This document shows positions 40,380-64,000 of a stretch of DNA of 64,000 nucleotides, in pieces. Location of the stretch: contig OZ316891.1 in the NCBI GenBank assembly GCA_973895155.1, forward strand, positions 11,778,771 through 11,842,770, given 5' to 3'. A program made the position numbers and the translations under genes. Below the pieces are notes generated by a model. The model saw only the letters and a list, made by a program, of their open reading frames with translations. It did not search any database and had not been told where the DNA came from. The DNA is from Marsupella aquatica. Its lineage: Eukaryota > Plantae > Marchantiophyta. The first letter of the stretch is position 1. Each line of letters begins with the position of its first letter.

Positions 40380-40700
40380 TGCATAAAATATGTTGCACAA
40401 AATATGTTTTGCGAAAAAGACATCATTGCACAAAAGATGTTCTTGCATAAAAGACGACATTACGCAAAAGTATGTGCAAAATGTCATTGGGTAAAAGATA
40501 TTGTTGCACAAAAGGTGCAAAAGAGTGAATTAATGATGACTTTGTGCAAAAGATGTTGTACACAGAGTAATCAATGATTTCATGTAAAAGATTTATAGGT
40601 GTTGCATACAAGATTTGGTCGAGTAAAGACATAATTATTACACAATTTATACAAGATTCGGTTGAGTATGACATTGTTTCACAATTTATATAAGATTTGG
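40380..40700. repeat. Degenerate AAAAGATGT/TGCACAAAA minisatellite-like tract
   Basis: Recurrent AAAGATGT(T/C) cores, the reverse-complement flavour of the 16660-17575 tract. Confidence 0.45.
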
Positions 40701-42971
40701 TTTTGTAATGGTACTCAATTTGATAGGTGTTGCAATAAGGATTTCATTGCATGAAAGATGTAGTTTAGTAAGTAATTATAAATTTGCACAAAAGAGATTA
40801 CAATGTATAATTAAAGTGAAACTCCATCATTCTATTTATTAAATATGAATTTTCTTTTGTTCACTTTCAGGCCCCTAAATGTTTACTTTGTTAGGGGAAA
40901 ACTTAACAGATTAATGTTTTATAAAGATTTATAATTTTAATTTTTAGTTAAATTCATTTTTTAATAGAATCATATAATTATTGCCCTTCAAGGCTTTGGC
41001 ATCTTTGAATTTGGCAGCTTTTATAGAACAAGATGTCCGAGAAAATGAGAAGTGTGACCTCACACGGAGAAGCATGTTTTTAAATTTTTTTGGCAAATTT
41101 TGGCAAAAATGATGATTTTTGTACCTAAAAAACACAATTTTGCCCATATTTCAGTTTTGTATTGCAATTGGGTTGTGGTGCAGCCTAGCTTTGAGAAATG
41201 GGAGAGACAACAATTATACAATCCTGAAATATTGTGTAGTTGAGTTCCTCCTGGACCCTTGTTCCCCCATGTCAAAACAGATAAAATTATCACTTCCAAA
41301 AAACCAAAGAAGATAGAAACTTTTTCAACAATCTTCCCAGAACCTCAAAACACTGCATCTTCCCATACCTGTAAAACTAGGCAACCAAATTGACCAACAT
41401 CCAAATCCTAATTTTGGAAAAATGCCTTTGATAAATTACATCACAGGTGCCCAAGATTTACTGCACAGTTTGACACAGTTTACATCATGTTAATTAAAAC
41501 AATATACTCACACACTACGAACCTATCCCTGGCATGGCCCAAACATTAGATTGCATCGGAAGCAAATTGGCAAGCAGCTCCCCAAACAAGAAATGAATCT
41601 CAAAGGTGATACTGGTATTGCAAAAATCCAATGTCATCAAATAAGACCGCTGAGTGAATTATCCATCAGATTTCAGAAGCAAAACCTAACATTGAATCCA
41701 AAATGCTATACATATATCATTTGTAGGAGCTCTACTTCAAAAATCTCATTTTTGAAATGACCGTCCTATTTTGTTGTCTAGTGAATCCTACACCAGTACG
41801 TAGAAATTGACCATGCGGCCAGACTTCCAAACAAGTATAAATAGCTAGGGCGGCGCAAGAAAACTTCTGCTAGTCATTTTGTTTCCAATTTTGTTTGCAA
41901 CTGTAGTTCAGACTTGCTCAATGGTCATGCGTCTTGTATTTCACTTGTTGAATGCAAAACTCCATTGACTACCTCTATAATGTCTTAGTCAGAATTTGAG
42001 GTGACGGATAGTTACACCGAGTCATCTCCTATATAACATAGGTGTTTGATGTTTGCCAATTGCTTCTACGCTCCTAGTAGGACACAATTGAGAGGTTAAA
42101 AACTACAGTTTATTGTGCCCATCGTCATCTTCAAAATGAGTTCAAACATCAATAATTTTGCACTTTTATTCATTAAGTTACAAATCACCATATTAATTAA
42201 AACTGGAATTTCTCTAGTCCAGAAGTTGACCTTCAAATTTCTTATTTTACCCCCAAAAGTTCTATAACTTGTTCCCCAAAAGCATACATTTTAGTGGCCC
42301 AATATACACTTTTTGAGGTCTAAAATTACAATCCTAATGCCCAAATTATTAATTAAATAATTCAGTTATCAATTATTAATACTTATTAATTAAAAGACAA
42401 TAAAGTGCTCTTATTATATACAATATAAACAATGAAAAATAGAATAAGACAATATAATAAATTCAAATGACCCATGATAACCAAGTTACACAAACACGAA
42501 AGGTACACCGGTGATGTATTATAAAAGTAAAAAACCTATTTTTATAGGGTCAATACCACGTCTGCCCCAATGCAGGCTCTAGATGGTTTTGACCGGTTGT
42601 TGAATGTATATCAATTACTATGTAAAAATCTATGTCAAGATTATCTCGACCCAAATGTAGGGTCCACATAATTTTGACCCGTTGTTGAATCTATATCTCT
42701 AGCTATTCCCTTTGTATAGGGTCGAGACCCAAATAACCTTTTTCTGAGAACATATCTACAAGTAAAAGAGGATCAACAGCATCTAGCCTCAAATGGATAG
42801 TACGCATAGCTTCACTCTTTTTTTGAGTAAGAATATGTATATCTACAACTCACATCATAACTGTTCAATGTAGGGTCGAGATAATCTAGACCCAAATCTC
42901 ATGCTCCTCCACCCTGCAATATGTATATCTACAACTCACATCGTAACTGTTCAATGTAGGGTCGAGATAAT

Positions 42972-44029
42972 CTAGACCCAAATCTCATGCTCCTCCACCC
43001 CGCAGAATTCATTTGAGCAAGTAAATCTAGACCCTGAGGGGTCATATTTCATATCGCGATTGCAGAAATTGAGAGGCTTTCTATTCCAGAACTTTGTGGG
43101 GAGGTCTCTACACCTCAGGACTTCCGAAACAAATCCCCGATGATTGTCTCTGTAGCGTCCTGTGTACTGATATCCAATTAATGTCTTTGCAAGGTCGTTG
43201 ATCGCCTCCTCCATCAATTCCTCCATTGGTGGTAATTGTTGCACTTCATTCTTGACATCCCAAGGAATTTTGTCCGCTGTGACATCCAAGACTGTATGGA
43301 TAACCGAATGAACCCATACCATACTACCCCACCGCTCCGTCAACAATGCATAAATGGCAGCTTGTTGATCTCTGTCCGCTAAAACATTTATCATAGACCA
43401 CTTTGGATGATTGATAAAAAGGTAGTGCTGAAGATTGAAGGCATGATACAATTTCCTGAGCAAAGGCCACAGTATTTTTGGAAAGAATGTATCATCCGTG
43501 GAGTGAAGCGAAAATGAGGAAGGAAACAACCCACAATTCTCTGGATTTGCAAATGCCTTCATTGGAGTGTCATCAAGAAGGAGTGTATTAGTTTCGTCGT
43601 ATAATCCACCATAATGTTTCCAAACAACCCTCAAATCCTTCAAATGAATATTTGCCTTCCCATCGGTAATGTCAGGCCTCTGGATTCCAGTATCGAATAT
43701 ATCTTCTTGTGTGAGAATAAACTTGAATTGCTCTCGCTCTTCTTGACTGAAGATCAAATGAATCATTTCATCCGTCCTGGGTTTCCTTGCACAAGTCCAA
43801 ATGGCAACATCAAATAACGAAAAAGCTGCGATTAAGAACTCGTGAAGATGGGGTCGCTCAACATACATAAAGTTAAACCCTCCACGTCTCCCCCAGTGGA
43901 CACCCTTGACACTTGTCGCACTATGGCGCGGTCCGGAACTTGGCATTTTGACAGAATCCCAACACATTTTGTTGAGGTCAAGAATCAATAGCTTCCGTCT
44001 GATTGGACCGTGAAGTGGAGGCAAGGGTC
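42972..44029 (-). CDS. FCP1/NIF-like HAD phosphatase-domain terminal exon of the element A gene
   Basis: RKLLILDLNK, ERPHLHEFL, FDVAIWT, LKDLRVVW, NTLLLDDTPMKA. The computed ORF starts at TTG, and the domain is preceded by a splice acceptor (TTCTTTGCAG) at 44030. Confidence 0.8.
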
Positions 44030-44416
44030 CTGCAAAGAAGGAACACCAATGTTAGAATTGTAGGAGATAAAATAGAGGAATGCTTGAGATGATCTCAAGC
44101 ATCATAAGTGAATGAACAACAGTCAACATCATACCTATTGTTGGTTGAAGGTCAGTAGTTGAAGAAATCTCAGGACATCTTCAGAGATTATTGTCGACGC
44201 ACTCCACAACTGGTAAGGGCCCGCCTATTTTTGTGAAGGTAGACATAATAATTTAGACGGCTGAATTTCATGACTGTTCAAACTAACTTGGGTTTCAACC
44301 TCACGTGCTGAAAGACCCAAATTCATCTAGAAAGTTATCTCCTAGTTGGTTTTGGATGTCCAAATTTATCCCTCCGGGAAAGGTCTCAACAAGAGCTGGC
44401 TCAGACCAAACTGGCA

Positions 44417-47400
44417 CTAATTTGAACTTAAATCCTTCCTATACTTTCTAGATCGAATAATCTTCTCAGACTGCTCTGTACTGACTTGTTGACCTTTTGA
44501 CGATCCATTAGTCCAGACATAATGAGTAGCACTTGCTTTGAGTGATTTGTAACCAGTTCTACCAATTTCAGTTTCCGATTTCCTAACAAAAGGGAGAATT
44601 ACAGGGCTTCCAGTAGAAGAATTTGTGAAAACAAGCTTATTCTCTGAAGCGCAAAACATTTGGTCCAAGGGAGAGGACGATGCATCTGCCTCGTCCTGAG
44701 GGGGAGTATGGCAGCGACTAGCTTTCTTAGTAGAGAGAATCTCATCCAGTTGAGGAGGGCTTGGAATTGGTTGGCTAACTACATCCTGCAAGGTGGATTC
44801 CCAGCCAACATCCAAGGTTGAAGACTGTTGTTCACGTTGTGCGTCTCCAAGGCCACCCGATGAAGGAACACCTGGAAGGTCGAGATCATCTCGAGCATCA
44901 TTTCCAAATTCAGGCAGTATTTCACCCTCCTCTTCCATGTAGCTTGGGATTTTTGGGCCCTCCGTTTTGTGATGCTCTAAATTCTCCGCAAATACTTCCT
45001 CAAAAACACTGGTTTCCACCGGAGCTATGTCTGAGGCCGCCTCTTCTATAAGAATGAGGGGACCGGCAGTAATTTCCTGAGATGCTAACAACTCTTTGGG
45101 TGGCACATATAAAACCTGCTTGTTGTCATGGAGGAGCTGAGCAAAGGCTTCTGTGAATTCCATCTCTTGAGCTGTGTTCGAATACACAAAACAATCCCGA
45201 CCAAGAATGACACAAGCTTTCAATGTCTGTCCTCCATAGAAGAAATCCAACACTGTGTGACCTGGGCAGGAGAAATAATCAACAAGACGCTTTGTCATTT
45301 GCAAAGGCTTTGCTCTCGGATTTACAAAGCCACCCCGCCGACCGACCATCTCATAAGATGGGGCCATCTTCTCCAAAACTTTGACATCACCAGTAGATTC
45401 ATCGAGCTTATCTTTCCCCTTTGATTGGTCTTTGTTGTTCCCAGTAGGGGCCTTCAAAGGCAAGACTGTGAAGTCTTTGTCCCACTTCTCACTGTAGTTC
45501 CAAAACGCATAAAAGTCATCAAAGAAAATTTGGGACCAGTCTGGTTCCTCTTCACAACAAATTCCCCCAAAGATGATTGAGTCTCGGGCTCCAATGAGAA
45601 AATCTCCCTCCTCCTTGGGCAGCTGATCATGGTAGTAGCTCCCGTACTCCAGCTTTGTGTGGACTTTCTTCTCACGACGAATATTTTCAAAGGCACTCTG
45701 AATCTGGCCTATCAATGGGCCTTGACGGACAAAAAAGATTACCAAGATCTCCGTGAGTCGAGTTTGCCATCTGCAAACAATACTCCAGCAAGACAAAAAA
45801 ATTGGCATCTGTCCATTGCCATTGTCGAAGATGACCAAAATCAACAATGGAAAGTGGGCACGTCCTTTGCACCGAGTCAACAATCTCAGGCTTCATTGTC
45901 CTCATCAAATTATCGCTAAAAAATGTGCGATAAGGAGTATCCTCCATTGAAGGCATCCCGCCAAATACCTTGCAATATATCTGCACAAGCCTAACAATGA
46001 GACTTTGCGGAAATGGGTTTTTTGGCCTATTCTTTTTAGGAGGTTGGAAATCCAAACCTCTCCAGCAAGTTGTCTAAGTTTGGGCAACTCACCACGATCC
46101 ATAAATGCAGGCAAATATTGAGTTAGCTCAAACCAAGTGAGTGAATTGGCAAACCCATCCGGATACTTCAAGACGAAGTACTCCACAATTTTTGCCCTCA
46201 GCTTGGTCATGACTTTGAAAGTATGAGCCATATCACTCATTGATTGAACATCAGATTTGTTGGCTGGGTCTTTCTTCAATAAAACCTTCTGATGTTAAAC
46301 GGCACTAAAAACTTTCAGAATGTCGTCACTACTCAGGTCTCCTTCAAAGCATCTAAACAATGCCGGCGTAATTATTTTTGTTGTCTGGGATTTCCCGTTT
46401 ATTTTTGAACCTAACTCCCCTAGACCATCTGGAAGAAGTCCCTTGACCCAATTGATGCACATTTGTCTCCAAGTCAGACTGGAAGAGGTTCTCTTCCAAA
46501 AAAAGCAACCAAAAAATATTCATCATATCGGATTTTCCAGTCGTTATTTTGGCCAAGGCCATAAAATCCTGATCCAAACAGTACAAAGAAAATCTGAGGC
46601 TCGAGACGATCTCGAGGTAGAATTAAGGAACTATGTTGAAATTTATCGGAGAATACATGAAGATAAATCAAATATATAAACTTGACCTTGAGGCTCGAGA
46701 AAATCTCGAGCTAGAAGTGGATTTGAGTTCGAATATACCTGGAACTTTTGATGATCCGTTAGTCTATTGGACCCAATCACGGGTCTCTCCGGACGGCCAC
46801 ACTCGTCAAACTGTCGATTGGCATGGACCATAGTATCAAGAAAATAGGACTCATACTCCATGGCCTTATTAACAGCATTTGCCCTTTGTGAGTGTTGAGC
46901 AAGTATTGTTCTTGGAGTTTTGTCCGAAAGAATTTGTGACTTTCAATATTGCAGACTCTTCGCAACCTCCTTCAACTTTGCATCGCTCTTAGCCCAACTT
47001 ATGATCCAAACAGCTGCCTTTGCCGAGTGTTGTCCACTAATTGCAAGGAACTGCACCTTCTTATTCTTAACACCCCACTCAAACTCTTTTTGATCCTCAG
47101 GAGTATTCTCATAATGGAGCAACTGCGAACTCTCTCTTGAATATGGAATTAAATCCGCCACAACTGGTACCATTCCAGGGTTTCTAACCATGGATTTCGC
47201 GACCTCCATGGCATGGTCTTTATTGAACATCCTATATACCAATACTATAGAAGGCGAATCTATACTAGTGACAGGAATGTCAAAAGTTTCATTCATGCCA
47301 AATGTGTAATACTCCTCAATCTCCTTAAGAACTTCGGCTCCTTCTTTAACGCTCTTTTCTCCCGGAGCATCTCCTGGAGTGCCATCATCATCGGTATGTG

Positions 47401-49393
47401 CAATCACACCCGAGGAAGATGCCGGAATGAGATCTATCTTGGGCGGTACGGAATTTTTTGGTGGATGAGCCTTCTTCCCTTTGCTTTCGGGTTTGTCAAC
47501 CCTCTTCCTCTTTTGAGACACCTTTGCTTCCTTTTTGTCCAAACCAGAGGTCTTGTCTCCTGCAGCTACGGATTTCACTTTACCTGTCTGTCTCCGATGA
47601 GACAACACCCACTTTTTACAAGCATCCTCGTCAAATTCTCCGGCTCCAAACACAAAATCAGGGGATATGGATTCAAACTCCCCCAATTTTGATTCCAACA
47701 TTAGTCTCAAAACCTTCCACGTGAAAGGAGTCATGAATGCATCATCACGATCAAACCCATACTTTCGACAATAAAGGAATCCAAAAATTATGTCGGCTCC
47801 AGATATAGGACTATCTTCAAGCAAATTACTTGTAGTAAAACCCTCGGGGAAGAACCCCATTGATATCACGCTCAGTTGTTTCCTCGCTGCACGTTCAATG
47901 TTAAGATCGCAAGAGTAGTTTTGGGCGTGAAGTCTAATTAAAGCCCACTTTCCTGTCTCATGGTTCTCCACCGTCAAAACCATGTCCTTACCGTTACTCA
48001 TCACAATAGAAACAACAGGCCCTAGTAGGCTACACACCAGAGGATCGACTGATGGAGACCTCGTCTTCACACAAATAATAGTTCCTTCCATGTCTTCAGT
48101 TTCAGCAAGCTCAATGGCCCAACAGAATCCAAATTGACCTTGTCCAGGGCAGGAAACCTCAATTGCATGTTCATCTTCGACTACCAAATTAGGCGATCCC
48201 AATTTTGCACCTGGTATAGCCAAAATGGTGCAATTGTCATAAACATGTACCACAAAACCAAGAAACAAATAGGAAGCTCGAGATGATCTTGATCTTCCTT
48301 CATTATTAGGACAGCTGAGTCGACAGTTTTATGCACTGTAGTCTGACATGTTCCAATGCCACATCTCATCCGGGGAATTTAAAAAGAGATTTCAACCCCA
48401 AGAAATCTAAAAAGAGAACACAACAGTCAGGAACTACAAGAGGCTCGAGATGATCTCGAGCCACCATCTGTTTAAAAGAAAAATACAAGGGCTTGAGATG
48501 ATCTCGATCCTCAGATATATCAGTTGAGGTTTTATTCCATTGCATATCATAAATCAGTCAAAAATAATCCAATGTCACCTATTCGACCACATTCAAAACC
48601 CTCTAACTCAGTGGTTTGTCATCTTCACAAACGAGTTGGAGGACTAAGAAAGTGGTCCAAAAGGCAATGTTGGATCACATTGGATAGGATATTAGTAATT
48701 GAAGTAGACGACATGGAGTCCTTCCAACTGGAAGAAATCGGTCAAGGAATATGAATGAACATAATGGAAGATGGTGATGAATATATTTGGCTCAAGACGA
48801 TCTTGAGCCTAACATCTCAAATGAGTGATCCGAATATCATATTCAACAATGAACATCATATTCAATCAATGATTAAAATCCACTTTCTCCACTGACTTCT
48901 CATACCCACAAACCCGTTTGGATGTCAATAATCAGAACGAGTTGGAGGGTAGAGAAGTCCCTGGAGGAAGGAAAATTTAGATATTTTGGATATGATGTTC
49001 ACTTTTGAATTATAAGAGCTTGAAGAAATCTGACTAGGTAACATGCAGGAAATGCATATTGGCTCGAGATGATCTCGAGCCTCATGCCACTTACATCAAA
49101 TGCAAAATCAATTGATATCACAAACTTTTGAAGCAAAGTAATGTAGAAAACATCAATGGGCTTGAGATGATCTCAAGCCTCAACTGCATCCAAGGAATCC
49201 AGAAACAAGTGGACCAATTGAAGCTCGAGATGATCTCGAGTTAAACCTGAACAATGAACAAAGATGATGAATTATGTTTAATGGTGCGATGGATCTGATG
49301 TGCTGAGTCTAGATGGGTCTGAAGCTCATCCCCAACGGTTGCAAGGTTGTACTCAGCGAAGTCCTCCTTGGAGAAATCTACAACAGTCGACAT
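44417..49393 (-). pseudogene. Element A gene: unknown N-terminal domain + ParB/Srx-like domain + degenerate beta-class N6/N4 DNA methyltransferase; intron-containing, with stops and frameshifts
   Basis: ParB-like: FDIPVTSID...YRMFNKDHAMEVAKSM...FLAISGQHSAKA. MTase C-half: VNPRAKPLQMTKRLVDYFSCPGHTVLDFFYGG...ACVILGRDC. In-frame TGA at 46943-46945; intron 46569-46738; putative first exon 49393-49247. Confidence 0.7.
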
Positions 49394-50755
49394 GGTTGGT
49401 GAAGAGAGGAACGTACTACGGGCTGAGAACTTAAAAACAAATCTCGAGCCTAAACAAAAAATCTTGACCCTATCAAATCTTGAGCCTAAACACAAAATCT
49501 TGACCCTATAAAATCTCGAGGAAAAAAAATAATCTTGACCCTCTAATATCTCAAGGCTAATACAAGGATCTCGAGGCAAGAGCGCAAAAAATCTAGAGGC
49601 AAGGAGACAAGGGACGCGAGGAGGCGAGGAGGCGAATGTGAAAATGGGGAGTTCAAACCCCTGAAGCCACTATAAGCCCCTCGGGGGTCGGCCTTGAGGG
49701 CCGTGCCAAGCGTGCCACGGGCTCGTGCAGGCTCAAGTAGGCTGCCACGCAACCTATTGGGTGCGTACAGTCATTATTACGGTCACACGTGTTGTCATTA
49801 TTGTTATCCGTACTTCAGCTCTGCCGCGAGTTTAGCCGTGCCACAAGTTTAACCAAACTGTTTGATTGGCCTTTTTGTCAGTCAGGATTTTATATATTGC
49901 TTCTCTTTGCTCTCCAGCGGGTCATTCTTCTCATTTTGTTTCACTGCTTGCTCGTTGCTCCCTTTGCCTCTCTCTGCTCTCTCTCCGTCTCCCTCTCCCT
50001 CTCTCTGGCTCTAGATTTCTGCTCTGATCTCTTTCTATCATTATTTTTAAGGGTTGTGGACTCTGCGTTTGTGTTTAGGATATGTCGAGACATTATCATT
50101 TTAAGCTCTGAAGGAGGTCTAAAATAATTGAGCTCCTATCTTTTAGAAAACCAAACCTTTTCAGCTTATACTAATGTCGGTCAAAATCCATTTGGAAGCC
50201 TTTTCCCTCTATTTGATGGCCTTTTAGAAGCTATTTCTCAGTAAACTGGGAACCTACTTTCTTAATTGCACCAAATCATACCTCTAGATCATCTAGAGCC
50301 ATTTATATGTTCTTATTTTGGGTGGCTTATTATTCATAATAGTATCTTTGTCAAATACAATTTCCTTTTTGGCTCGAGATCATCTCGAGTCATAAGTTTG
50401 ATCCTCAAAATTATTAACTTTTGCCTTCTATCTAATCGTGCATTCGGTTGTCCTTCTTCTAATTGGGTTTGTAGATAGTCGGAGGTATAGAATCTGAATT
50501 CGCTATTTAGTGAGATTTCATATTCTACCTCGAGATCATCTCGAGCTAAATACTTCTGAATTTTTACATATTGGTGTTTTTGGTCCCTCTTCTACCCCGA
50601 GATCGTCTCAAGGTAGAAGAGTTTCTTATTTTCTCTATCACACAGTTTTGTGGGATAAACTTCTACACTTGGGTTTTTTGGTTTGTTTTTGTAGTCACTT
50701 TACTTCGAGATCATCTTGAGGTAACTACATCCAACGGTTTGGACCACGTTTTCAA

Positions 50756-51595
50756 AATGGGGATTTTCTTTTGAGGGGACGAGGTTTGCCTTGTAATCGA
50801 CGGAGTGGAAGTTGCTTGCGGGACCGTCCTCAACGTTGACCCGGGTGACTCAGTGCGTAATGTTGATTTGGGAAGTAATCGTATTGGAGTTCTCATTGAG
50901 AAGTGCTATGAGGGATCACGGGAAATTCCTTACCCTTTGCCGCCAATCAGGACCCTATTTGATGTTGTCGACTCCTGCATTATTTGGGATGCCTCTTTTG
51001 CATATTTGAAGTCACAGTCAACTCCAACGACAACACAAATGGATGCCTCTTGTTCTACAAAGGATACGGTTCCCGGTTTTGTACCAGACAAATCTTCGGT
51101 GGGAAGTTTGGGAGACTCGATTATATTTGGCGATGAAGTCGAGCTTTGGATCGGCAATCAGATTGTGGCTCGTGGATTTGTATTCAAGACAAATCCCGAT
51201 GAGACCTATCACAATGAAAGACTTGGCACTTCTAGGATTAGTGTGAAAATATGTGAAGTTTTTCAAGGAAGGGAGAGGTTACCCTTTCCTCATGCTAGAG
51301 CCAATACCGTTAAGGAAGCATTGGACACTTTTGTATTCTAGAATTTAAACGATGTTACTCGAAGGAGTTCTTCCCAGGATATACTAAACGACCTGTCCAC
51401 ACGGGATGTTTTTGGAAATTATAATTTCAAGGATTATAGTTTGCAATCTAATTGGATGACCGAGGAGGTGGAATTGTATGCTAAGGATAATCAGACCAAA
51501 GTGGGGGTTGGCATCATCATAGTTCCTTTCGAGTTAGGTGCAATTGATGATGAGGTTCTTGGGCCAAATCACATTGGGGTTGCGGTCACACGCGT
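50756..51595 (+). pseudogene. En/Spm (CACTA) TnpA/Tnp1-like protein with three tandem domains, interrupted by an LTR retrotransposon
   Basis: Repeated pattern VAxGxV...P...LG....V.I...(I/L)P(Y/F)P....T(L/V).(D/E)....W, seen as VACGTVLNVDP..LGSNRIGV..IPYP..TLFDVVDSCIIW, VARGFVFKTNP..LGTSRISV..LPFP..TVKEAL and VGVGIII..LGPNHIGV. This resembles the Tnp1/En/Spm-like (Transposase_23) domain. Confidence 0.65.
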
Positions 51596-51679
51596 TGTCG
51601 TGGGGATTCTTTGTTTAGTAAGTTCCTTCTAAGTATAGCTTAGTAGTATAGGATAGTAGTTTGAATTCTTGCATTATAT

Positions 51680-52100
51680 GCAGTCTATAGTGTACACGCT
51701 ATAGTGCACAACCTACAATATGCATGCTACAGTGTACGATCTATAGTATGCATGCTACAGTGTAAAATCAACAGTATGCATACTACAGTGTACGATCTAC
51801 AGTATGCATGCTATAGTGTGCATGCTACAGTGTACATCTACAGTCTGCATGCTATAGTGTACAATCTACAGTGTGCATGCTACAGTGTACAATCTACAGT
51901 GTGCATGTTACAGTGTATGATCTACAGTCTGCATGCTACAGTGTACGATCTACAGTGTGCATGCTACAATGTACGGTCTACAGTGTGCATGCTACAGTGT
52001 AAGATCTATAATGTGCATGCTAAGTGTACGATCTACAATATGCATGCTACAGTGTACGATCTACAGTGTGCATACTACAGTGTACTGCCTACAATTGCTC
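51680..52100. repeat. 28-nt (2x14-nt) tandem array inside the putative LTR
   Basis: CTACAGTGTGCATG-CTACAGTGTACGAT repeated about 14 times with decay. Confidence 0.85.
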
Positions 52101-53220
52101 CACTTACGTAACTACAGTACTAGCACACTTACTTGCCTTGGATATGTGACACATGGCTTCCATCCGTGTGCCATGCTTGATCCGTGTGCTTGAGGTGTAA
52201 GCACTATAAATAAAGTGGAGAGGGGTTCTCTCCCCTCACTCCCTATTTTTCATCAACTGAGTTGTGAAGCCTTAAGAATCCATTGGACTTGATGACCTCT
52301 TCTATGAATATAACCTTTATGAAGTAGACCCACTCATACACGCTTGCTTAGAGCTTCGGCTCGGCCAGAGATATTTTGTATGAGTTGGACCTTCAAGTGT
52401 TATCATTTGATAGGAGATGGTTATTAAGTCCTAAAGAGATGCAAAGTGCTCAACAATACCTCCTTTTGGGTGAAACCCTTATGAAGTAGACCTACGCATG
52501 CACGCTGGCTTGGAGCTTAGCTCAGTCAGTGGTAATTTGTACACGTTGGACCTTCAGATAGTGTTTTCATTCAAAAGAAGATAAACTTATTAAGATGAAC
52601 ATTTGCATGTATATACTTAGAGTTAACTCAATGCATAGTATTTGTTTGAAATAAATAATCTTTTCATTGAATGATTCTATATCTTGTCATTATAATGAAT
52701 ATTAGTTGGATGGAATATTTGATAGTATGATAATGCCCAGACCAGTACCTGTTCTTCCTCTCCCTAATCTTTTCCTTATTAGAATTCATGTACTCCAAAA
52801 AGAGATCATGCGTCAGCATATGACTTTTCACTTTGGAGAAGCATTTACAATTGCGGTGTTAAATTTAATAGAGCCGATTGTATATCCTTATGTAGTTTAT
52901 GGGCAAGATTGGGCTTGCACAATTTTTATCTTGTATTGAGATGGATCTCAACAAACCTCCCTCCGATGAACCTTCCGTTTCTTTCTCGTTAGGAGATATT
53001 TGTTTTGTAACTCAACCCAAGGTAGCTGCCAAGGAGGCAATAGTCCGTAGGTATGAAGAAAAGGGTTATGATGTTGTGCTTTCATCCATAAAACCATTCA
53101 TTGTGGTGTCTGCTACCCAGTCTAGAATAGTAATCATGATCTTAACTTAAGTTCTCTCTTGACACTAGCAGCCATAGGCCCGGTGCTTCCTCAAGAACCA
53201 CATTTTTTCCCCAGACATGT

Positions 53221-53237
53221 TGGCGACCATACTGGGG
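53221..53237 (+). other. Primer-binding site, tRNA-Arg-like
   Basis: TGGCGACCATACTGGGG lies 3 nt after the LTR-terminal CA and resembles the Tat/Ogre PBS TGGCGACTCTGCTGGGGA. Confidence 0.65.
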
Positions 53238-53315
53238 AAACTTGAGGCTAGTGTCAAAGATAAAAGGATATTGATGAGAGAAGAAGCTTGATAGAAAATA
53301 GAAGCAAAGGAGAAG

Positions 53316-55487
53316 TTGTTCACAATGGTAGGAGGAACTATGGAAGAGATGACTGAGATGTTTATGAGTTTGATGGAGGCCAAAGCACGAAGAGAGGCAC
53401 CTGAGAACAAGAAGAAGGAGGAAGCAAGTCGTATGACCAAGTGCTTACAAGCTTTGTTAGCAAAGTTTGGGCAGTTTGACGGGAGAAGAGCAACCCGTAC
53501 TTGAAAGAGTATTGGATAAAGGTAGCCATCCACAAGATCAGTGAGAAGGTTGTCATTCATGAATTTGCATCATTGGTGGAATCAGAATTGAAAGACATCA
53601 TCACCAAGATTGCTGAAGGAGCCAAAGAGGATTGGAAAATATTTGAAATGAGGGTGAAAGAGGAGTTTTGATTTGAAGATCCAGATCGAGTTACTGCAGC
53701 CACATTCCTTGGTTGGGTACAAGAGAAAAACAAGAAGTTGGGACCTCAAGAATTATTGAGGGAATTCAATAGGTGCTACCATCAACTATCTTCAAAGGAT
53801 CTAACAATAATCAGTCTCAGAAGAGGGGGTCTTTTGATCCGTGCAGCTGATATACCTTTGAGGGTAGAGTTGGACAATGCTCTAGATGTTATTGCTCTAG
53901 ATGCGGATGAAGTCACTTGGGAACAAGCAGAAGCTGCAATCCACAAGGTGACAAAGCAAAGGAGGAGAAGGGAGGTTGATCAAGAGGCGGAAGCTCCCAT
54001 TCTAGACTTGAGAAAAGTTAGAGAAGAAAGCACTACTGATGGAGGAGAAAAAGAAGTCAAAAGCAGCATCACAGAAGGGGGCGACATAGCATCATTGACA
54101 GATATGATAGCAAAGCTTGCTCTTTCAATTCAAGCCTTGGACTCGAACAAAAACCCTAGTGGAACATCACTAGCAGCCTTGAATAAAAACTGGAATTGTT
54201 TGTGATGTGATAGCAAGGAGCATCACAGAAGGGATTGTGGAGAACTAACAGAAGCATTGCGACTTCGACATGTCAAGTTTGTGGAAGGAAAGATTGCATT
54301 TGTTGATTCTGGAGAGCCAATACCAATGAATGTGAACCGAGGAGGAATGAAGCAGATTGTGGAACAGAGAATGAGAGAGAAAGTTTCTAGTGCTGCAGCG
54401 ATGTATGGTGATCCTTCTGTCTTTAGTCTTCAAGTTAAGAAGAATCTGCCTTCCATAGAACATCTTGATATTATTGAGAGGAAGAGACTTGTAGAAAGTA
54501 TCTGGAGAAAATCCAGTTGGGATGTGCCTGTGTTGATCAACTCTATCATTGCGGAAGTAGGAGCAGCATGGAATACCGCTGTGGAAGATAAGAGGAGATA
54601 TGAAGGCACTTCTATGGAAGAAACCCAAAGGAGAGAAAAACAACAGAGACCCAAAGCAGGACCTCGCTTCACACGTCAAGCCAAAGAGAAAGGAGTTCGA
54701 TTTGAGGAGCCTGAAGCGTCCACAAGCAAGAGTCAAGAAGAAATCTCCCATGGAAGCTCAATGGATACCGACACCCCAAAGAAAGGTGCTAAGAAGAGCC
54801 CAGGCTATTTGCTTACTAGAGAGGTGGAGCAAACCGTTGATCCAGAAGTGATTGCTGAGAAATTTTGGCAGCAAGAGGTAGGGGGTTCACTAATGGAGAA
54901 CTTTTTGGAAGTCTTCGTTTAGACTTACAAGGCAAGATCTTGGATAGGGCAAGAAGAAAAAGGGTTTACAAGGAGGGACCTCATGCACTAACTGCCAAGA
55001 TTCTTAGCTATGACTATGAAGATGATTTAGAAGATGAAGAAGAAGAAGAAGAAGAATTGGAGGGAAATGTATTTTGTGCTACCATGAGTCACCATGAAGC
55101 AACTTCAGGTATTCATGGCAATGTAGCCCTACATGAGGTGGATTTGCGGGAAACAATCCGACCGTATTGGGCAAGAGCTTGCTCGGAGATTGAGGTGCAA
55201 TTGCTTGGGGCTGAAGGAGGAATTTGGGCACTCCTAGACTCAGGATCTGAGTTGAATCTAATGTCTAAAGAGACATACCAAAAAGGGCATTGGAAGATTG
55301 ATTGTGACATCAAATGGAATGTCAATTCAGTGGGCACAAGGGCAAATCCCTTGTGGGGAGCATGTCCCGAGATCATGATCAAACTTGGGAATGTGGTAGA
55401 AGCTATCAATGTCTTTGTATTTGAAAAACTTCCATATCCTCTTATTCTTGGTGTTCCTTTCATCACGGAATTACGAGTAGAGACCAT
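53316..55487 (+). pseudogene. Gypsy gag-protease (multiple stops and frameshifts)
   Basis: Fragmented ORFs 53316, 53738, 54257 and 54865 with a zinc knuckle and DSGS protease motif; the frame resumes at ~57170 after the CACTA insertion (RVET/MVLDDGTH). Confidence 0.8.
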
Positions 55488-57166
55488 CACTAGTACATTT
55501 TACCTCCTTTTTCCGATTCTCTCCACATCGGACGCCTTTGTAAAATAAAATTTGAAAAACCATATATCCGATACTACTAGCATCGCAACATGCCATTTTA
55601 ATAGTATCGGATATCGACAATCGGACTTCTATCGGAAAGTCCGATGGTGGGAGAATGGGAAAGTCCGATGGTGGGAGAATGGGAAAGTCCGATGCTAGGA
55701 GAATGGGAAAGTCCGATGGTGAGGGAATGGGAAAGTCCGATGCTAGGAGAATGGGAAAGTCCAATGGTGAGAGAATGGGAAAGTCCGATGCTAGGAGAAT
55801 GGGAAAGTCCGAAGCAATCAAAATGGGATATGCATTTCAGCGGACGCGACATGCTCAGGTCACCCATCTCTTCCTTTAATTGGGTTTCTACTTTCATTTG
55901 GAACTATGAGCTAGGTGCCCATCTCCCTTGACATGTGAACTCTTCAAATTTTCTCAACTAATTGGTCACCCATCCCAATTGCTATTCCTCCAACATGAGC
56001 TTAACTTTGTGGTTCTTATTCCTTACATTGTACATGCAAGCTTAGCACTTTTGTTGTTTGACTTAGAGTGTTTGGGGATTTTATACACTTGTGAGTTTAC
56101 TAAGACCCATAATTTGGACCCATTCTTGATCCATTTTTCTCTATCATGAGATTAGATCTTTGCATCAAGTGACCTATTCTAGTTACCCTATTACATTCCC
56201 CTAGGAGAAACCAATAGAAATCTGGCAGGGGTCATTCATCGATATTGCCCTCCTTCATTAGATTTGATATGGGATAATTATGGCTTATTAGTTATGGATG
56301 ATATTTTGGTCCTTCCAAAGCCTCAGCGTCAATGGCTCCTGATTGTCTCATCTTTTATCAACTATGTTGTTGTTGGACTTGCAACAAAGACTACATGGGA
56401 CAAGCAACCTCCTTCTAGATGATGTATTTTGGACTTGGCATGTTGAGCACATATTTCCGTAAGGGAACAATATGTTGGGTCTTGGAATGAGGCAAAAACA
56501 ACACTGAAGTCCATTTGCCTCAAGTATGAAGTTATTCATGCATGCAAGAATGATTGCATCTTTTGGGAAGAGTATGTCGGTGCAACCACATACCCCATCT
56601 AACACATCAAAACTTTTCATTCTAACACAATCAAAAATTTTCTTTTTGTCATAACCAGACTTTCCCATACTCCCAACATCGGACTTTCCCATTCTTCCAG
56701 CATCGGACTTTCCCATACTCCCAGCATCGGACTTTCCCATTCTTCCAGCATCGGACTTTCCCATTCTTCTAGCATCGGACTTTCCCATACTCCCAGCATC
56801 GGACTTTCCCATTCTCCTAACATCGGACTTTGCCATGTTAGCACAATCGGATATAATATCCGTTATTATTAACTACGGAAAGTTTCTGATCATATTGTAA
56901 CGCACATCATTTTCGTTACAAAAAACATCGGACATATCAATCAAAGTTTCTGTTGAGGGATCCCATGTGTTTTCTAACGGATATGATCCATTTTTTAACG
57001 CATCGGAAAGGTTCCGTTGTCAATTATATCGGAAATGAAGATATCCGAAGCCGAGAGTATGGCATATTGCCATTTTTTGATAATCGGAATTTCCGATGCT
57101 AAAAGAATCGGACGCCGATTGTTCGCAAAAATTGAGCATTGGAAATCAGCTTAATATGTACTAGTG
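55488..57166 (+). mobile_element. Non-autonomous CACTA (En/Spm) element, 1679 bp
   Basis: TIRs CACTAGTACA...TGTACTAGTG; 3-bp TSD CAT (55485-55487 and 57167-57169); inverted subterminal 24-nt arrays (GGGAAAGTCCGATGCTAGGAGAAT at ~55636-55811, reverse at ~56657-56835); internal Tnp2 remnant KYEVIHACKNDCIF at ~56520-56600. Confidence 0.95.
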
Positions 57167-57382
57167 CATGGTACTTGATGATGGTACTCACATGGAAAAA
57201 GTGAAGAGCAAGGATGACTTGAAGAAGATTCAATTTCCCATACTTCGGCCAGGTAGTACAAGAGATCGTCGGGAATTTAAAACGGTGGAGGAGTACAGGT
57301 CCGACCAGAGTATGAAGGGTTTTGACTAGGCGTCCCGCTAAGAGAAGCAAGCAGGCAGGATGCTAAGCCTTTAGTCTCGTCT

Positions 57383-58118
57383 ATGGAGGTTCATTCCTCT
57401 TTTGTTGGTGTGAGTAGGACTAGTGAAGTGTGCTATTTTCATAAAGGTGGTGTGAAGAGGAGAGCTCAAAAGATGTTGGAAAAGAAAGAAAAAGATTTGT
57501 TCACATTAGGAGTGTTGAAGGTTGAAGAGAGAATAGAAGGAGTACTAGAGGAAAGGGGATTACCACCCTCTCTTCGAGAGATTATTGGAGACATTGAGGA
57601 AGAAAATGGAGAAGTGGAGGTAGAAAGGGATGTGTATGGTTACATTGAGCACTTTGCAGAAGTACACACAAAGTACAAAATAGTGGACAAGAAGGTGCGA
57701 CCTACAGCAGTTCCCTTGCCATCTGAGGCTAAGGAAATACTGAAGCGAGCAAAGGAGGAGCCAAGTCCTAGAGATCGTACTAAGATTGGGCATAAATTCA
57801 CTGAGGAGACGTTGCTCAAATTAAAGATTGGTGATAAGGGTTTACTAGAGGAAGAGAGAAGAGCCTTCGAGAAGATGATCATCAAACATGAAAAGGCCTT
57901 TTCCTTTTCCATTGAAGAGATTGGATGTGCTGATCCAAGGGAGATCACACCAATGGTAATCTTCACTGTTCCACATGTTCATTGGGACCTTAAGCCAATT
58001 CCTGTGCCACGAGCACTAATGCCTAAGTTGGTGGAGTTATTCAAGGAGAAGTTAGATGCCAAAATCCTTGAGAGAGCAAACGCTCCATACTTAAATCGGT
58101 GGTTCACTGTGAGAAAAA
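57383..58118 (+). pseudogene. Gypsy pol segment up to the start of reverse transcriptase
   Basis: TKYKIVDKKVRP, PMVIFTVPHVHWDLKPIPVP, PYLNRWFTVRK. Confidence 0.8.
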
Positions 58119-60028
58119 CACGTTGACGGACCAAACGAGAAGTGTGATAGGCTTCTCATTTGGGCCACCCCAAATTTTTTCTAAGTGTAAAACGCGACGT
58201 GATACAAACCAAGATTTCCTACAAAATCAAACATTTTCAAGCGCAAAATCAAAACATCTCAAACTTTGACTAGTGAACCTTACGAAACAAGGTAAAATGA
58301 CATTTTGTATCACCAAGTTTTATGGAGGCAATACAAAATATGATACGGGGCATCACATTTCACATTCCTTAACAAGTAAATTCGATGTGGTTCTTTATCA
58401 ATAGAGAATATTCCAAAAAGATACCAACTATGGTCAAGTTAACCCATTAATAATTGTACTATGGTAAAACTTAACTCGACCACAGTACAAACTAAACTAG
58501 GCTCAATCTGAAAAGTATAAATAAAGGACCACAAAAAATAATTAGCTTCATAATTTTGTTTTGTGTCCTCTAACCCATGTTACTCCTTCCTCAATGTTGA
58601 AAGCAATTGTCCATACAAACCCGGATTCAACAAGGCCACCGACTAAACTGCTAGTAGTTATCCTCACTTATCCTCCTTTTCCTTTACTTCAAACCCAAAT
58701 CTGATTCTTCGTATCACATTTCAGATTCTTAATGTTACTTTACCATTCAAAAGTGATAGAGTACTCTTGAAAGCAAAACCCAAATGTGATACGCTGTATC
58801 ACATTTTGGATTCCTAAAGGGTTGAAAGAGGTATTAGTTTGAGTGGGAAATGAGGGTATTGGGCTTGAGAATTAGATTTTGGATATACTTGCTTGAAGAA
58901 TCCAAAATCTGATACGTGTATCAGATTTTGTATTCTTCATAGAGATTTTGTTCTTAACTTATTATCTTGGTTAGAGGGTCAAGTCTACATGCGTAGACAT
59001 TGCTGGTAATTGGAAGAATTTATTAGTGAGACAAATACAGGGAATTGTTGACCAGGTTTTATGGACCAGGAATTGTTGACTAATGGTTGTGGTTGGAGAA
59101 GTTTAGGGAGTGGTTGTTGACTAGTGGTTGTGTACGAAAATATTGACCAGGAATTTTTGACCAGGTTTTGTTGACCAGGAATTGATGACAATGTCTCAGT
59201 TTGCCTTGCTATATAAACTACAACGTTTTCTAGAATAATTGTGAACAAGGATTGATTACATTGAGGTACGATGTTTACAGCCTTTTGCTCAGAGCTCTAT
59301 TGTCGATGTTTTTTTCCTCAGTCATGGATTTGTAGTTGTCATTTCCTAATAATTTCTGATCTTTGAATTCATGTTATTAATCAAGCACTAGATGGACCAA
59401 AGTAATTCATGGTGGATAGAAAAGTACTGTCTTGTTATTCAGTCTGCATCTTTTGACTCTATATACTCTAATTTCTGTGCAAAACCCAGAAAGTTAGGCA
59501 AATTGACTTTTGCATCTCATTGTAGAAATTTTTTGTTTATCATTGGAGTTGTTTTCTATGAATCAATTTCACTGATTACTCCTCAATGACTTAATGAATC
59601 AAAAATATTGATGATCCATTGGAAAGGCCTTGGAATTCCGCATCTTTTGATTATATATACTCTGATTTTCGTCGAAAATTAAGAAAGTTAGGGAAAATCG
59701 AATTTTCCAACTTGTCACAGAAAATAGGCGCGCGCGACTTCGGCGACTTCATTCTGAAGCTTTGCTCAATCATTTGATTTAATTTTTTTTCTCCTTGATC
59801 TTATTCTCTTGAGCTTCAAGTAGAATTCAAGATGAACCTGAACTGAGTTGAGAAATAGTTCCAAACTCTCTCGACAAGCTAAGGTTCCTCCAAGCACGGG
59901 ATTTTGAAAAACAATTTGAGACTCTATTGTCTTGTTTTTCTTGGAGCAATACCAAATCTGATTCTGAGTATCAGATTTTTCATTCCTCAACTGTTAAGGT
60001 GGGAGCTAGTTTATTATTTGCCGTTAGG

Positions 60029-63000
60029 ATGTCAAGCGAGAGCAAGAAGGCTTCCATGGAAAAAATGCAGACTATGGGGTCAATCTGCGACATTATTTGG
60101 CAAGATGAAATGATTTGTTCAGAGGAGAAATTTGTGACCCGATCTTGGTACCTCCGAGATGGGCGAATTGTGGATCCAAACAACCAATACGAAGGACCAG
60201 TCCTATTTGTCCAGATCAAGAAGACGGAGTCAATTACCCTTTCGTTTGGTCCAGTATTGGCGGTGAGCATGGCAGATTTCCAGGAGAAGCGGGGAAAAGG
60301 TACAAAGCAAAAAAAAGCATTAATGTTCCTGGTGATGGCCGAGACAAAGGGATTTTCTTCTGTTGTTCTTACCTATGAGAAATTTGACCCAGTTTTGATG
60401 ACACCGTATGAGGATGATCCTATTGTTACAGAGATTCTTGCTCTCCAGGATCCAAACTTGGAGAGATGGTTTGTGCATTTTTGTAGCCTGAGTGATCCTA
60501 TTCTCTTTCCGAAATTGCAAACATATTACAGACAAGTGATAGGAGATGATCTTGGGAAGTCGCCAAGGAAGTTGAGAATTATACTACCAAAAAAACCAAT
60601 AGAGAGTAGAAGAAGATGAGCCCATCCCCCTGAAAACTACAAGGAAGAAAAGGAGTGGGACATCTGTAAATAGTGATAGCAAAGAGCTTTCAGAGCAAAC
60701 AAATGCATCAGCTGATCAATCAAAGATTCATTTGACGGTTGCTAATAGCACTTTTGACAATAAAAGTGCATCGGGTGCTGCTACTTCTGACCTCAGTCTA
60801 CGCGTCTCCGACATGGCTTTTACAACGGTAAATACATATTCCATTGATCATTGTTTAGAATTATTGGTTTGGCTTGATCTTGGCTAGAATCATGGAACCA
60901 TCAGCTTGGATTGATCTTATATCTGTAATTTGTGGACAGGAGACGGACGAGATGACCACTGCTCTAGAAAGACATGAGACCGAGGCAGCACGCACTGATT
61001 TGGCCATGCTTATGATAACCAAACGCGTACAAAAGACAACGGTCTCTCTGTCCCTTGCAAACTTGATTTTTGATGAAGATGGAATGGAGAGCTCCACTCT
61101 TGTTCGAGCAATTGACCAGTTGCACGTGGAGAACATCAAAACTTTGATGAAGAAAAGCCCTTCAAATTTTAGTGCTCCATTTGTTCTTGTAGTTGAACCT
61201 GAAGATTGCCCAAGAGTCAAAGATTGGGATATCAGCAAGTCCAAACTTTGGAGGTATCGCATAATTGGAGGAAATCATGGAGCAAGGGCAAAGGCAGAGC
61301 TTTACAGAGCATACAAAAAGGAGATATTTGGTCAATTGCAAGCTTGAGGGGGGCAAAAAGGATATCCAATTTCTCCACCAAAAGGATTCTAGTCATTTCC
61401 AATTTACAAGGGGTGGACAAGGTGTTACACCAAATGGCTAGGATTAGTTTGTTGAGATTGGATGGTGAGATCTTGCATGCCAAGTCTTTGGAAGTGTGTC
61501 CAGGCTTTTAGGAAATCCCAATCTTCTTGGAAGTGTGTCAAACCTTTATGGAAGTGGTGTTCAACTAAATCTTTATGATCTTTGAGTCCTTTTTCTCTCC
61601 TTTTTGAGCTAATCCTTTTTGCGTCCTTTTGCCCCCCTCAATCTTGCAATTGACCATTTTCCGAGATTGAAGCTTGGGTTTATGCAGATTTAACCCCTCA
61701 AGATGTTCAATGGTTAGGTTGGTAGCACAATATTGATCAGGAATATAGAAAGAAGATGAATAGAATTGACAAGATTAGAACTTGTCACAAGATATTCATT
61801 GCCAGGGGTGGAAAGAGGACCTCGGACCTTCGTGCAGTCTGTGCTGTTGAGTGCCACATGGAGCATTACATTCCTGGAAATAGGGCTAGCTTACAAACGT
61901 GGGATCCTCTTTTTCAGATTGCCTTTCGGACAGGAACAGTGTGGGAGCTTCAAGAAAAGATTATGAGTATGTATTGCAAGCTTGAATTGAAAGGGCAAAA
62001 GAAAGTGCAAGCACCAGTGATAGTGACGGCCAGCAAGGGGAAGGGCAAGGGCAAGACAAAAGCTCCGGTTCCAAAACCAATTCAAAAGTTGGCTGATGAC
62101 ATGAATCTTACACCTTGGAAAGATATCCAAGGTATCTCCAATGAGACTGTCATCCAAAAACTCTTAGAATGAGTGGTGGCAAAATACATCAGTTTAGAGG
62201 AAATGGGGCACGAGGCCGATACGTACAAAAAGCTTAAAAAAATTAAAAATACATTTGTCCAACTAGCGAATCAAGAGAATTGGGCCGCATGTCGAGCTAT
62301 GTTTCCCAAAGAAACTGAATCGAAAGAGCTCGAGCGATTTGTTGAGGTCATGGCCGCAGTTGTAAGTATTCCAAACCTCAAATTATTTTGAAGTTAATTA
62401 ATTTGATTGTTGTTTAGATTTTAGAGATATTTTATATGATCCAAGTATCAAGTTTATTATTGGACCTCTGGTTTTGTAGTAGTTGAGAGACTTGATTAGC
62501 TGATACTGAATTCAAAATATGATACCGAGTATCATCTTTGGTATTGACCTATATGTTTACTGGGAAATTCAGCCTTAGCAATCCCAGACATGATGTGGAG
62601 TATCAAATTTGTTATTGGTCATTTGTTTAATCAAGATGTCTTCATTTTGTACTTATAGATCAAACTCTGCTCAAAGAGGAAAAAGGAGCCAAGGATTGGA
62701 AATGAGGTTGATGAAGTCGGAGAAGAGGAACTTCCTGCAGATAAGATTCCTCTACGGTTCAGGAATTTTGTGGCCAAAGCAATTGAAGACTACAACAAGA
62801 AGCTTGCAGGCGAGGAAGTCGAATCATCCGAATTCACATGGAAGAATGCTGATGGCGATGTGATGTCCTATGCTCTTCATACAGGAGATGCCAGGGTTTG
62901 CAAGGCATTTTTGCCACCAAAAAATTATACTTTGGCCATAGCTGACATCCCATACGGTTTCAATGCGGTTGGGTCTGAGAATGACGAGAAGGCATTTGAG

Positions 63001-63749
63001 GAGAATGATATCATCGATATGGTGGAGGGATTTGCAAGTGTGACAACAGCTGAGGCTTGGCGCTTTGTTGTAATACATTCTTTGCAGCAGGTTAATAGTG
63101 TTATGAATGCTCTTGGTAAAACCTGCAATGCGGGAATTGAAGCTGGTATTTGGGAGAAGACTAATGTTCATGATCATCCATCAGGTAACAGGTTGGCTTG
63201 GTCTTTGAAAATTGGACAATTGGTTTTCATAGCAAAGATGGAATCAGGACAAGGGAGATGTACAATTTCACAAAAGAAGAGAGTAGAGGAAACATCATTA
63301 AAGTCCCATGCGTAACTGTGAAGTCAGTGACTCTTTTGGGGGAAATAGTAAACCCCTACCAAAAGCCAGTAGCTTTATCACAATATTTTGTGGATCATTT
63401 TAGCTATGAAGGGGATTGGGTTATAGACTTTTGTGCAGGGACAGACTCCACAACCTGTGCAGCCCTCCTCAGTCATCGACATGCTGCAGCAATTGAGTTG
63501 AGCCCTACTCAAGTAGATTTTATTGTAGGGCCAATTTAAACTCTAGACTCTAGGTGGCAATTGACTGAGGAGCATGAAATCCAAGGGACTGGGATTCAAG
63601 CTATGGAGATTCAACCGCCATTTGGTGGACTACAAACTAGCACAGTTATGACTGAGGTTGTCGAGTACGAGGACCATGTAGAGGATGAGGTAGTAGAAGC
63701 ACCTGAGGAAGATCATCCAGCTAATTTTGATGATATGTTGGAAGATTAA
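60029..63749 (+). pseudogene. Element B gene: unknown N-terminal domain + ParB/Srx-like domain + complete beta-class N6A/N4C DNA methyltransferase domain + acidic tail
   Basis: ParB-like: VRAIDQLHVENIKTLM...YRIIGGNHGARAK...IEAWVYADL. MTase: LHTGDA, LAIADIPYG, IWEK, NPYQKP, GDWVIDFCAGTDST, AAAIE. Lesions: MITE at 61330, stops at 61723, 62170 and 63537, frameshift near 63205. Confidence 0.85.
61330..61655. mobile_element. 326-bp MITE with ~33-bp TIRs and a 4-bp TSD (ATTT)
   Basis: GGTCAATTGCAAGCTTGAGGGGGGCAAAA...TTTTGCCCCCCTCAATCTTGCAATTGACC. Removing it plus one ATTT restores the host frame KEIFSEIEAWVY. Confidence 0.9.
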
Positions 63750-64000
63750 CTGATTTTGTATCAAGTTTTGAAAGTTAGACCGGTCAATAAACATTTTGTA
63801 ATTTGTTTTCTTGAAGTAATCAAACAAGTATTTCCCGCTGGTAATCTTGGATATTCTCCCAAGTTCCGTGCACTAAATATGTTGTAAAGAGTAGATTTTT
63901 TAGTCATGAACTTTGGCTAGTAGGGGTGGCTACCTTGTCGCTTGCTTTCTAGTCCCGATCAATATCTAATGTGATACTAGTATCATGTTATGTTTTTCTT

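Follow-up and report, generated by a model that had tools for sequence, protein, structure and literature searches.

Whether a transposon can carry a protein that recognises, and perhaps marks, the DNA of its own family is the question raised by a 64,000-nucleotide stretch of the liverwort Marsupella aquatica (contig OZ316891.1, positions 11,778,771 to 11,842,770; the whole of this stretch is the window below). Two mobile elements in its right-hand part, A and B, each hold a gene (gene A and gene B) that joins a ParB-like part to an amino-methyltransferase-type part, and each element is studded with a palindrome family of its own. The best reading of such a helper gene is likely, by analogy, that of a VANC-like self-recognition module; on balance we lean towards a mechanism in which the helper protein would bind its family's palindrome as a dimer, B-type proteins methylating their own element and A-type proteins serving as a bound scaffold, with escape from silencing as the probable benefit.

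On sequence comparison, genes A and B can be regarded as distant homologues with one domain order, as the initial annotation of this DNA had claimed: their N-terminal domains match with E 7e-4, their ParB-like cores with E 3.9e-5 (probability 70) and their methyltransferase ends with E 1.9e-5, and the comparison of the helical region is not significant (E 0.31), the row of window A being out of frame in that alignment. Gene B lies on the plus strand and keeps its first-annotated limits, 60029 and 63749. Exon 1 (60029..60827) encodes the N-terminal domain and a linker and has one frameshift near 60610; exon 2 (60940..62363) encodes the ParB-like core (VRxID ... IGGNHG ... HNIDQ) and a helical, helix-turn-helix (HTH)-like region and contains two stops and a miniature inverted-repeat transposable element (MITE); exon 3 (62659..63749) encodes a β-class amino-methyltransferase (DIPY ... 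DFCAGTDS) and an acidic tail, with a frameshift near 63203 and a stop at 63537. The MITE (61330..61655) has 30-nt arms with ATTT on both sides, a 4-bp AT-rich duplication of the kind that would fit a Sola1 derivative.

Gene A lies on the minus strand and also keeps its annotated start. Exon 1 (49245..49393, ATG at 49393) is predicted from sequence and donor context; exon 2 (46738..48207) encodes a β-rich N-terminal domain, a basic linker and the ParB-like core (YRxxN ... ISGQHS) and has an internal stop at 46943; exon 3 (44300..46568), whose acceptor at 46568 is placed from the relative P0027, encodes a helical region, a methyltransferase-like domain and an acidic linker and has several stops and frameshifts. 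The end first assigned to gene A, the stop at 44417, probably does not stand. Contigs and word depths of four runs (X1-X4) were used for joints, edges and multiplicity, and the stop lies after a 2-base difference (a frameshift near 44430) that is missing from most contigs of X1 and X3 but from a minority of those of X2. Because of this difference, fitting splice phases and a Riccia gene model in which the same ParB-like start is joined to NIF (R1sor_005697), gene A probably runs past 44417, via a small exon predicted from splice phase (44133..44211), into a NIF/FCP1-like (HAD) domain at 42972..44029 (PF03031, 2.2e-16; DLN for DxD; a Cys cluster), likely its last exon and on the same strand. 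In the window, the copies of genes A and B are each interrupted by several stops and frameshifts, so that both are dead, in agreement with the decay first described.

A symmetric matrix scan (score at least 12 for A, the A matrix being derived from the A sites themselves) gives 19 A-type sites at 42632-50722, whereas 20 dinucleotide shuffles of the same region average 0.05 sites and never give more than 1; they have the core CTCGAGAT-N-ATCTCGAG and lie at 42632, 42873, 42959, 44081, 44877, 46598, 46692, 48275, 48442, 48490, 48789, 49061, 49159, 49222, 50280, 50371, 50527, 50594 and 50702. Since the matrix was built from its own sites, the count within that region is partly by construction and the absence elsewhere is the informative part: beyond 52140 there is no match, and the first 42.2 kb contain a single weak one that is not palindromic. 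Element B holds seven sites at 58336-63990, compared with 0 in 100 shuffles, of the form AAAT(G/C/A)TGATAC-N2/3-GTATCA(C/G)ATTT (58336, 58697, 58782, 58905, 59954, 62515 and 63967, all non-coding), and intron 2 of gene B adds two weaker sites (62432 and 62586). Even when up to four mismatches are allowed, both consensus sequences are absent from 1-42185 and from the retrotransposon that separates A and B, which bears out the initial claim of a distinct palindrome family per element, missing from the first 42 kb; the consensus sequences then proposed are matched exactly by just two A and two B sites. With exon limits set from frames and homology, 18 of the 19 A palindromes (p 3e-7) and all seven B palindromes (p 0.007) are centred outside exons, and six A half-sites lie just upstream of the gene A start (49441..49577). 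An 86-bp tandem duplication at 42832-43003 carries an A palindrome and overlaps the stop of the NIF exon.

This raises the question as to whether the palindrome follows the protein subfamily, as the initial annotation had supposed. Co-segregation was compared in window A and B and in five fetched metagenome loci (L001-L005), whose motifs were derived from those same loci. The proteins of L001, L003 and L005 are 80-85% identical and form one clade at 100/99; their loci share the motif GGAGCGA(G/T)AC-N2-GT(A/C)TCGCTCC in 14, 7 and 3 copies, respectively. L002, whose protein is 62-65% identical to these, has instead 20 copies of CCGAT-N6-ATCGG in both orientations (8 and 12). The window B protein is 45-51% identical and has its own motif, with an inner GA(T/G)AC-N2-GT(A/C)TC in common with the L001/L003/L005 motif. 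No region holds another family's motif (shuffles 0-0.02), and in L001, L002, L003 and L005 all 44 sites fall outside exons, including in introns of the gene itself; L004, 1086 bp long and largely exonic, lacks any copy of a motif and is too short to inform. Together with A and B, six of six informative members thus have a private palindrome in flanks and introns, which, L001, L003 and L005 being close kin, amounts to four independent motif states, not six. The palindromes are mutually exclusive and change along the protein tree: the element-specific motif switches with the protein lineage. Deviations from the motifs mostly alter a single arm (27 of 28 in L001), and this predominance of single-arm changes fits double-stranded sites better than hairpins; a hairpin or cruciform role, raised by symmetric changes in A, ranks low, as one-arm changes dominate elsewhere and the arms of L002 are only 5 bp long. 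In all four motifs each half-site has a (C/T)GA(G/T) core, and most half-sites contain CG, the host target of 5-methylcytosine (5mC). Binding to the palindromes could be methylation-sensitive.

The amino-methyltransferase identity first assigned to the C-terminal halves holds for both genes, as each half matches PF01555 above cut-off (gene A 2.4e-6, gene B 3.3e-9), with motif IV ahead of motif I, as in β-class PF01555 amino-methyltransferases. Motif IV of the B-type is near-canonical, D[IV]PY in 4/4, its I or V in place of P deviating from (D/N/S)PP(Y/F/W), and motif I is LCCGTGS in 3/4 (L001-L003), window B having GTDS. The B-type profile matches 2zie and M.RsrI (E 0.008), with motif IV aligned to the SPPY of 2zie; the C-terminal half of window B matched 360 phage records, which among the matches listed are mostly annotated methylases, and its methyltransferase part matched PHROG methyltransferases at 3e-11, the motif IV half having no phage match. 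As an aspartate in motif IV leans to N6-adenine, N6-adenine would be a more likely target of the B-type than N4-cytosine. The specificity of amino-methyltransferases has switched repeatedly, according to extracts of PMC8885841. In exon 3 of gene A, motif IV is degenerate (IVDFGH) and motif I reads DFFYGG, the A-type motif I being D(F/L/I)F(S/Y)GG.

For the core preceding the methyltransferase, several weak leads converge. In language-model features of the Atlas, the B core lies nearest DUF3723 clusters (0.94-0.96) and ParB_N clusters (0.93, the family being annotated on 32% of members), and the A core nearest DUF3723 (0.94); PF12520 (DUF3723) gave no hidden Markov model match in any scan. HTH_ParB (E 0.043, in 1 of 11 proteins) and Spo0J 6sdk (E 0.46, one of two PDB matches) fall on the same stretch downstream of the core. 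DndB matches three of eight A members, at best with E 0.013, but one of 47 in a wider set. Two AlphaFold models were too poor (predicted local distance difference test 41.5 and 45.4), and Foldseek returned nothing at E<=0.001; Noc and Srx appeared in it at E 2-3 only and are not counted, and VIA-align gave one row at Z 2.0. These leads weakly support a ParB fold of the core, a lesser footing than the ParB/Srx-like domain had been given at first.

Relatives place the two genes in a wider family. The B core has six protein relatives and the five metagenome loci, which share its exon layout; three exons are open in L002, while L001 is interrupted by one stop and L003 by one frameshift. A word search with the A core gave seven proteins and its profile 118 representatives at E<=0.001, at least two of them false (P0103, a DNase II, and P0129); 27 relatives were looked up, including 11 from Riccia sorocarpa, three from Calypogeia fissa and one false Trichinella match, and scanning the 52 longer matches gave PF01555 in two (below cut-off) and NIF in one. 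ParB-like and methyltransferase parts, the ParB label itself being weak, occur together in a single spliced gene at A, at B and at each of L001-L003, and in one gene in the Riccia models R1sor_008484 and R1sor_008738. A weak search for long fusion proteins related to the A methyltransferase part gave 0 of 2661 candidates, the A profile had no confirmed match in metagenome and viral contigs, and tblastn of one B relative on plasmids gave nothing useful. As neither the B profile nor the neighbour of the L003 gene matched viral contigs, a viral origin is without support. That neighbour (L003 2994-3539, minus strand) and the 3' end of L002 are the same gene end, convergent on the methyltransferase gene in two loci whose palindromes differ; it has a weak SH3-like PDB match (E 0.14) and may be a transposase. 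In L005, a frame at 83-547 (plus strand) lies upstream of the helper gene. Searches with the N-terminal domain, the neighbours in L003 and L005, and the second gene of element A (50775..51595) gave no name.

These data establish the motifs, where they lie and how they turn over between families, the order of the domains, the state of the catalytic motifs and the multi-copy nature of A; from them we infer a ParB-type fold, palindrome binding, methylation and anti-silencing in the following way. A and B are decayed copies of large, palindrome-studded mobile elements, probably DNA transposons, and in each there is a helper gene whose product combines a likely ParB-type DNA-binding part and an amino-methyltransferase-type part. 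A dimer of the helper would read the inverted half-sites in the introns and flanks of the element and so tell its own family from others. The B-type would then methylate nearby DNA, more probably at N6-adenine than at N4-cytosine, which most plausibly would shield the element and its genes from host silencing. The A-type, its catalytic motif lost, would stay bound and act as a scaffold, to which a probably inactive FCP1-like domain would add an effector. A bolder version can be put forward only tentatively and is, as a whole, rather doubtful: the giant transposons of land plants would carry a diversifying ParB-derived site code, each family renewing a private palindrome across its introns together with a matching reader, one branch writing N6-methyladenine (6mA) on its own element and another being a double pseudo-enzyme scaffold whose FCP1-like arm is aimed at RNA polymerase II.

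Several observations weigh against the helper as reader and writer of these sites. The window copies of genes A and B are both dead, and within the 64 kb there is no transposase, far terminus or target duplication for either element. Profile searches against Pfam, PHROGs, NCBIfam and the PDB gave no significant ParB match, and the arginine patch of ParB, GxxRxxA, is replaced by G[QN]H[SG]A (SGQHS in the A-type, with H invariant in 47; GGNHG in the B-type, 12/12). With that patch replaced and the fold unconfirmed, a CTP clamp is not to be assumed, and the parS-like mechanism at first proposed is not supported. The idea that each element writes a mark fits B only, since motif IV is lost in 6/6 A-type sequences reaching the column (VDFG, ADLI, ADLT, ADFA, VDLA, LDLI), where the aspartate column is kept; two further A-type models lack the motif IV segment and are left out of the six. 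The A-type is thus likely a pseudo-enzyme family-wide, judging by its motifs, beyond this copy. Gene and sites are moreover physically linked, so that co-segregation is expected whoever binds and names no binder, and coding constraint alone would keep long motifs out of exons.

Other binders are at hand in the repeated-domain gene of element A and in the convergent neighbour common to L002 and L003, and a transposase-side binder is the main rival to the helper. The palindromes would then be sites of the transposase or of a TnpA-like helper (in element A, the gene at 50775-51595), and the ParB-like/methyltransferase gene would be unrelated cargo or act without sequence choice. We consider this unlikely, if still a serious contender: the TnpA of EnSpm/CACTA elements is established to bind repeated inverted motifs of its own element, both left ends here start with CAC, the CACTA element nested between A and B has its own repeated inverted unit, and the convergent neighbour is conserved in L002 and L003. 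TnpA sites are typically subterminal, however, whereas here the introns of the helper gene are filled with sites in 6/6 loci, and the red algal elements also have ParB-like genes beside inverted-repeat arrays.

Binding by the helper itself may serve other ends. It might repress the element that encodes it or set its pace, through autoregulation, a restraint on copy number or bridging of the ends, and not help it to escape silencing, which we judge improbable. The sites gather at the promoter side and in the first introns, the six half-sites stand just upstream of the A start, A retains sites without a catalytic motif, and plasmid ParB-family proteins such as KorB are repressors. In extracts of PMC8885841, 4mC (N4-methylcytosine) of bdelloids is linked to silencing. 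The abundance of element A, and a layout resembling the anti-silencing VANC case (PMC5735166, in extract), speak against self-repression, neither being decisive. Most improbable of all is that the palindromes arose neutrally, through local duplication and template switching in non-coding DNA, and have no binder. In favour of this, one pair of A sites is simply a tandem duplication of 86 bp, both A and B show symmetric changes (in A, 6 of 21 core deviations alter both arms alike, for which template switching could be the source, a point that also counts against the main reading), and the motifs of the fetched loci were derived from those loci. Yet the cores are kept although the sequence around the sites is unrelated, each of the four different motifs occupies all introns and flanks of homologous genes, and none lies in host DNA or in the retrotransposon.

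The region as a whole is a nest of insertions. Element A (42186..51595) is the visible part of a high-copy repeat. Its left end is likely CACCATA at 42186: single-copy contigs stop at 42220 in 3/4 runs, and depth climbs in the bin 42054-42207. On its right, a loose end lies behind 51595, where the element is cut by a long terminal repeat (LTR) retrotransposon. Word depth reaches about 320-380 on single contigs in X3 (19 in the flank) and up to 4726 in X4 (23 in the flank), summed word depth not being copy number; element A is a multi-copy repeat, the mobile context first claimed for these genes. Its second gene (50775..51595, plus strand), divergent from gene A and cut by the LTR, has three repeats of a β domain of about 70 residues, which we take to be similar to TNP1/TnpA-type domains and which has no Pfam match. 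The Ty3/gypsy-type retrotransposon (51596..58118, plus strand; gag, protease and the start of reverse transcriptase) and a non-autonomous CACTA element within it (55488..57166) lie outside the palindrome/helper-gene system. The likely 1.5-kb LTR of the former (about 51596-53100) holds a 14-bp tandem array (51670-52110) whose length varies among copies. The CACTA element has CACTAGTACAT ends, a CAT duplication and 24-bp subterminal repeats in inverted arrays, and its precise empty site, with the joint 55484-57167, is found in 4/4 runs. Element B (58119..64000) starts with CACGTTG where the retrotransposon frame ends (58118) and runs past the window end; with contig depths of 258 and 56 in X1 it is low-copy. 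EnSpm/CACTA elements, including Plavaka, have CAC...GTG ends and a 2-3-bp target duplication. Both left ends here start with CAC (CACCATA and CACGTTG), which would suggest EnSpm; a matching far end is absent from the window, and the published algal analogue is a Sola1 element. Left of element A, a low-copy stretch has short repeats of 17 and 35-40 bp (families D13 and D20) at 40400-40760. A frame at 19408-20334 (plus strand) has about eight repeats of about 22 residues, followed by a stretch resembling the start of an RPB5-type RNA polymerase subunit.

Two algal genome papers of 2025 put forward, as a proposal, self-recognition or marking by transposon ParB-like methylases. In Ectocarpus, the giant DNA transposon Sola1-1_Ec32 encodes a 1104-aa accessory protein with ParB-like and N4C/N6A methyltransferase domains in one protein, as here, which its authors propose binds and modifies its own element (PMC12477816). 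That element, from a brown alga, has AACCG ends and a 4-bp duplication, unlike the CAC ends here, and the comparison with it is one of architecture; the main text contains the string "palindrom" 0 times, and its extracts mention no inactive or NIF-fused variant, unlike the present family. In Bostrychia, Plavaka (EnSpm) elements carry the accessory genes PAG2 and PAG3, with methylase and ParB-like domains, adjacent inverted-repeat arrays and the idea of self-binding (bioRxiv 10.1101/2025.02.11.637652). The likeness is that a PF01555 methylase and ParB-like genes travel with a transposon as its cargo, with inverted repeats beside the ParB-like gene; however, a ParB-2OG oxygenase and a methylase-SET protein are encoded on separate genes there, with tandem arrays, whereas here there is one fusion with dispersed intronic sites. 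Adenine methylases fused to ParB-HTH are described from chlorophytes and chytrids (PMC4738411). DUF3723 (PF12520), the nearest named cluster of both ParB-like cores in language-model features, is conserved cargo of fungal Starships (bioRxiv 10.1101/2021.12.13.472469), a likeness in giant-transposon cargo that serves as a lead only.

Eukaryotic 4mC writers are represented by MpDN4MT1 of a liverwort (bioRxiv 10.1101/2021.02.12.428880) and the N4CMT of bdelloids (PMC8885841). They share the β-class PF01555 domain and a prokaryotic origin, but are host genes with SPPY, stand-alone or fused to a chromodomain, whereas the genes here have D[IV]PY or a degenerate motif, a ParB-like fusion and a mobile context. 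With bacterial ParB/Spo0J-parS, the system has in common palindromic sites and a ParB-like core, itself weakly indicated, with a helical, HTH-like region behind it; it differs in the replaced arginine patch, in sites unlike parS and in the methyltransferase fusion, and no ParA was seen. The gene architecture and the idea of self-modification are thus already known from brown and red algal transposons (PMC12477816; bioRxiv 10.1101/2025.02.11.637652). In titles and the beginnings of abstracts, most subscription papers lying outside coverage, nothing was found on land-plant members or family-specific palindromes of these genes. As judged from sequence, what is new is the presence of members in land plants, their division into a branch that looks active and one that looks inactive, and direct evidence of family-specific site turnover. 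The locus and its relatives carry the gene family into land plants and supply four candidate sites, each well delimited, exclusive of the others and matched to its protein, which extracts of the algal papers lack. With the three open exons of L002, a reciprocal test of binding and methylation is straightforward, and liverworts include a genetic model; if the reading is true, a land plant would have a DNA mark made by a transposon, and the family would be a source of site-specific binders.

A functional parallel is VANC of the Arabidopsis VANDAL elements, a protein of Mutator-like elements with a shown loss of 5mC; in an extract, one of the two algal papers singles out VANDAL as the sole transposon for which binding to, and modification of, its own DNA is known. 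According to extracts of PMC5735166, family-specific motifs, such as the targets of VANC21, lie in introns and in non-coding intergenic and terminal stretches and shift together with the protein, and it is this placement of family-specific motifs in non-coding parts of the element that is also found here. The VANC protein is unrelated, however, and its motifs, 8-9 bases long and non-palindromic, are shown by experiment, whereas those described here are palindromes of 16-25 bases known from sequence alone. The likeness to VANC is accordingly one of working alike and not of membership, the predicted domains of the liverwort genes being of another kind.

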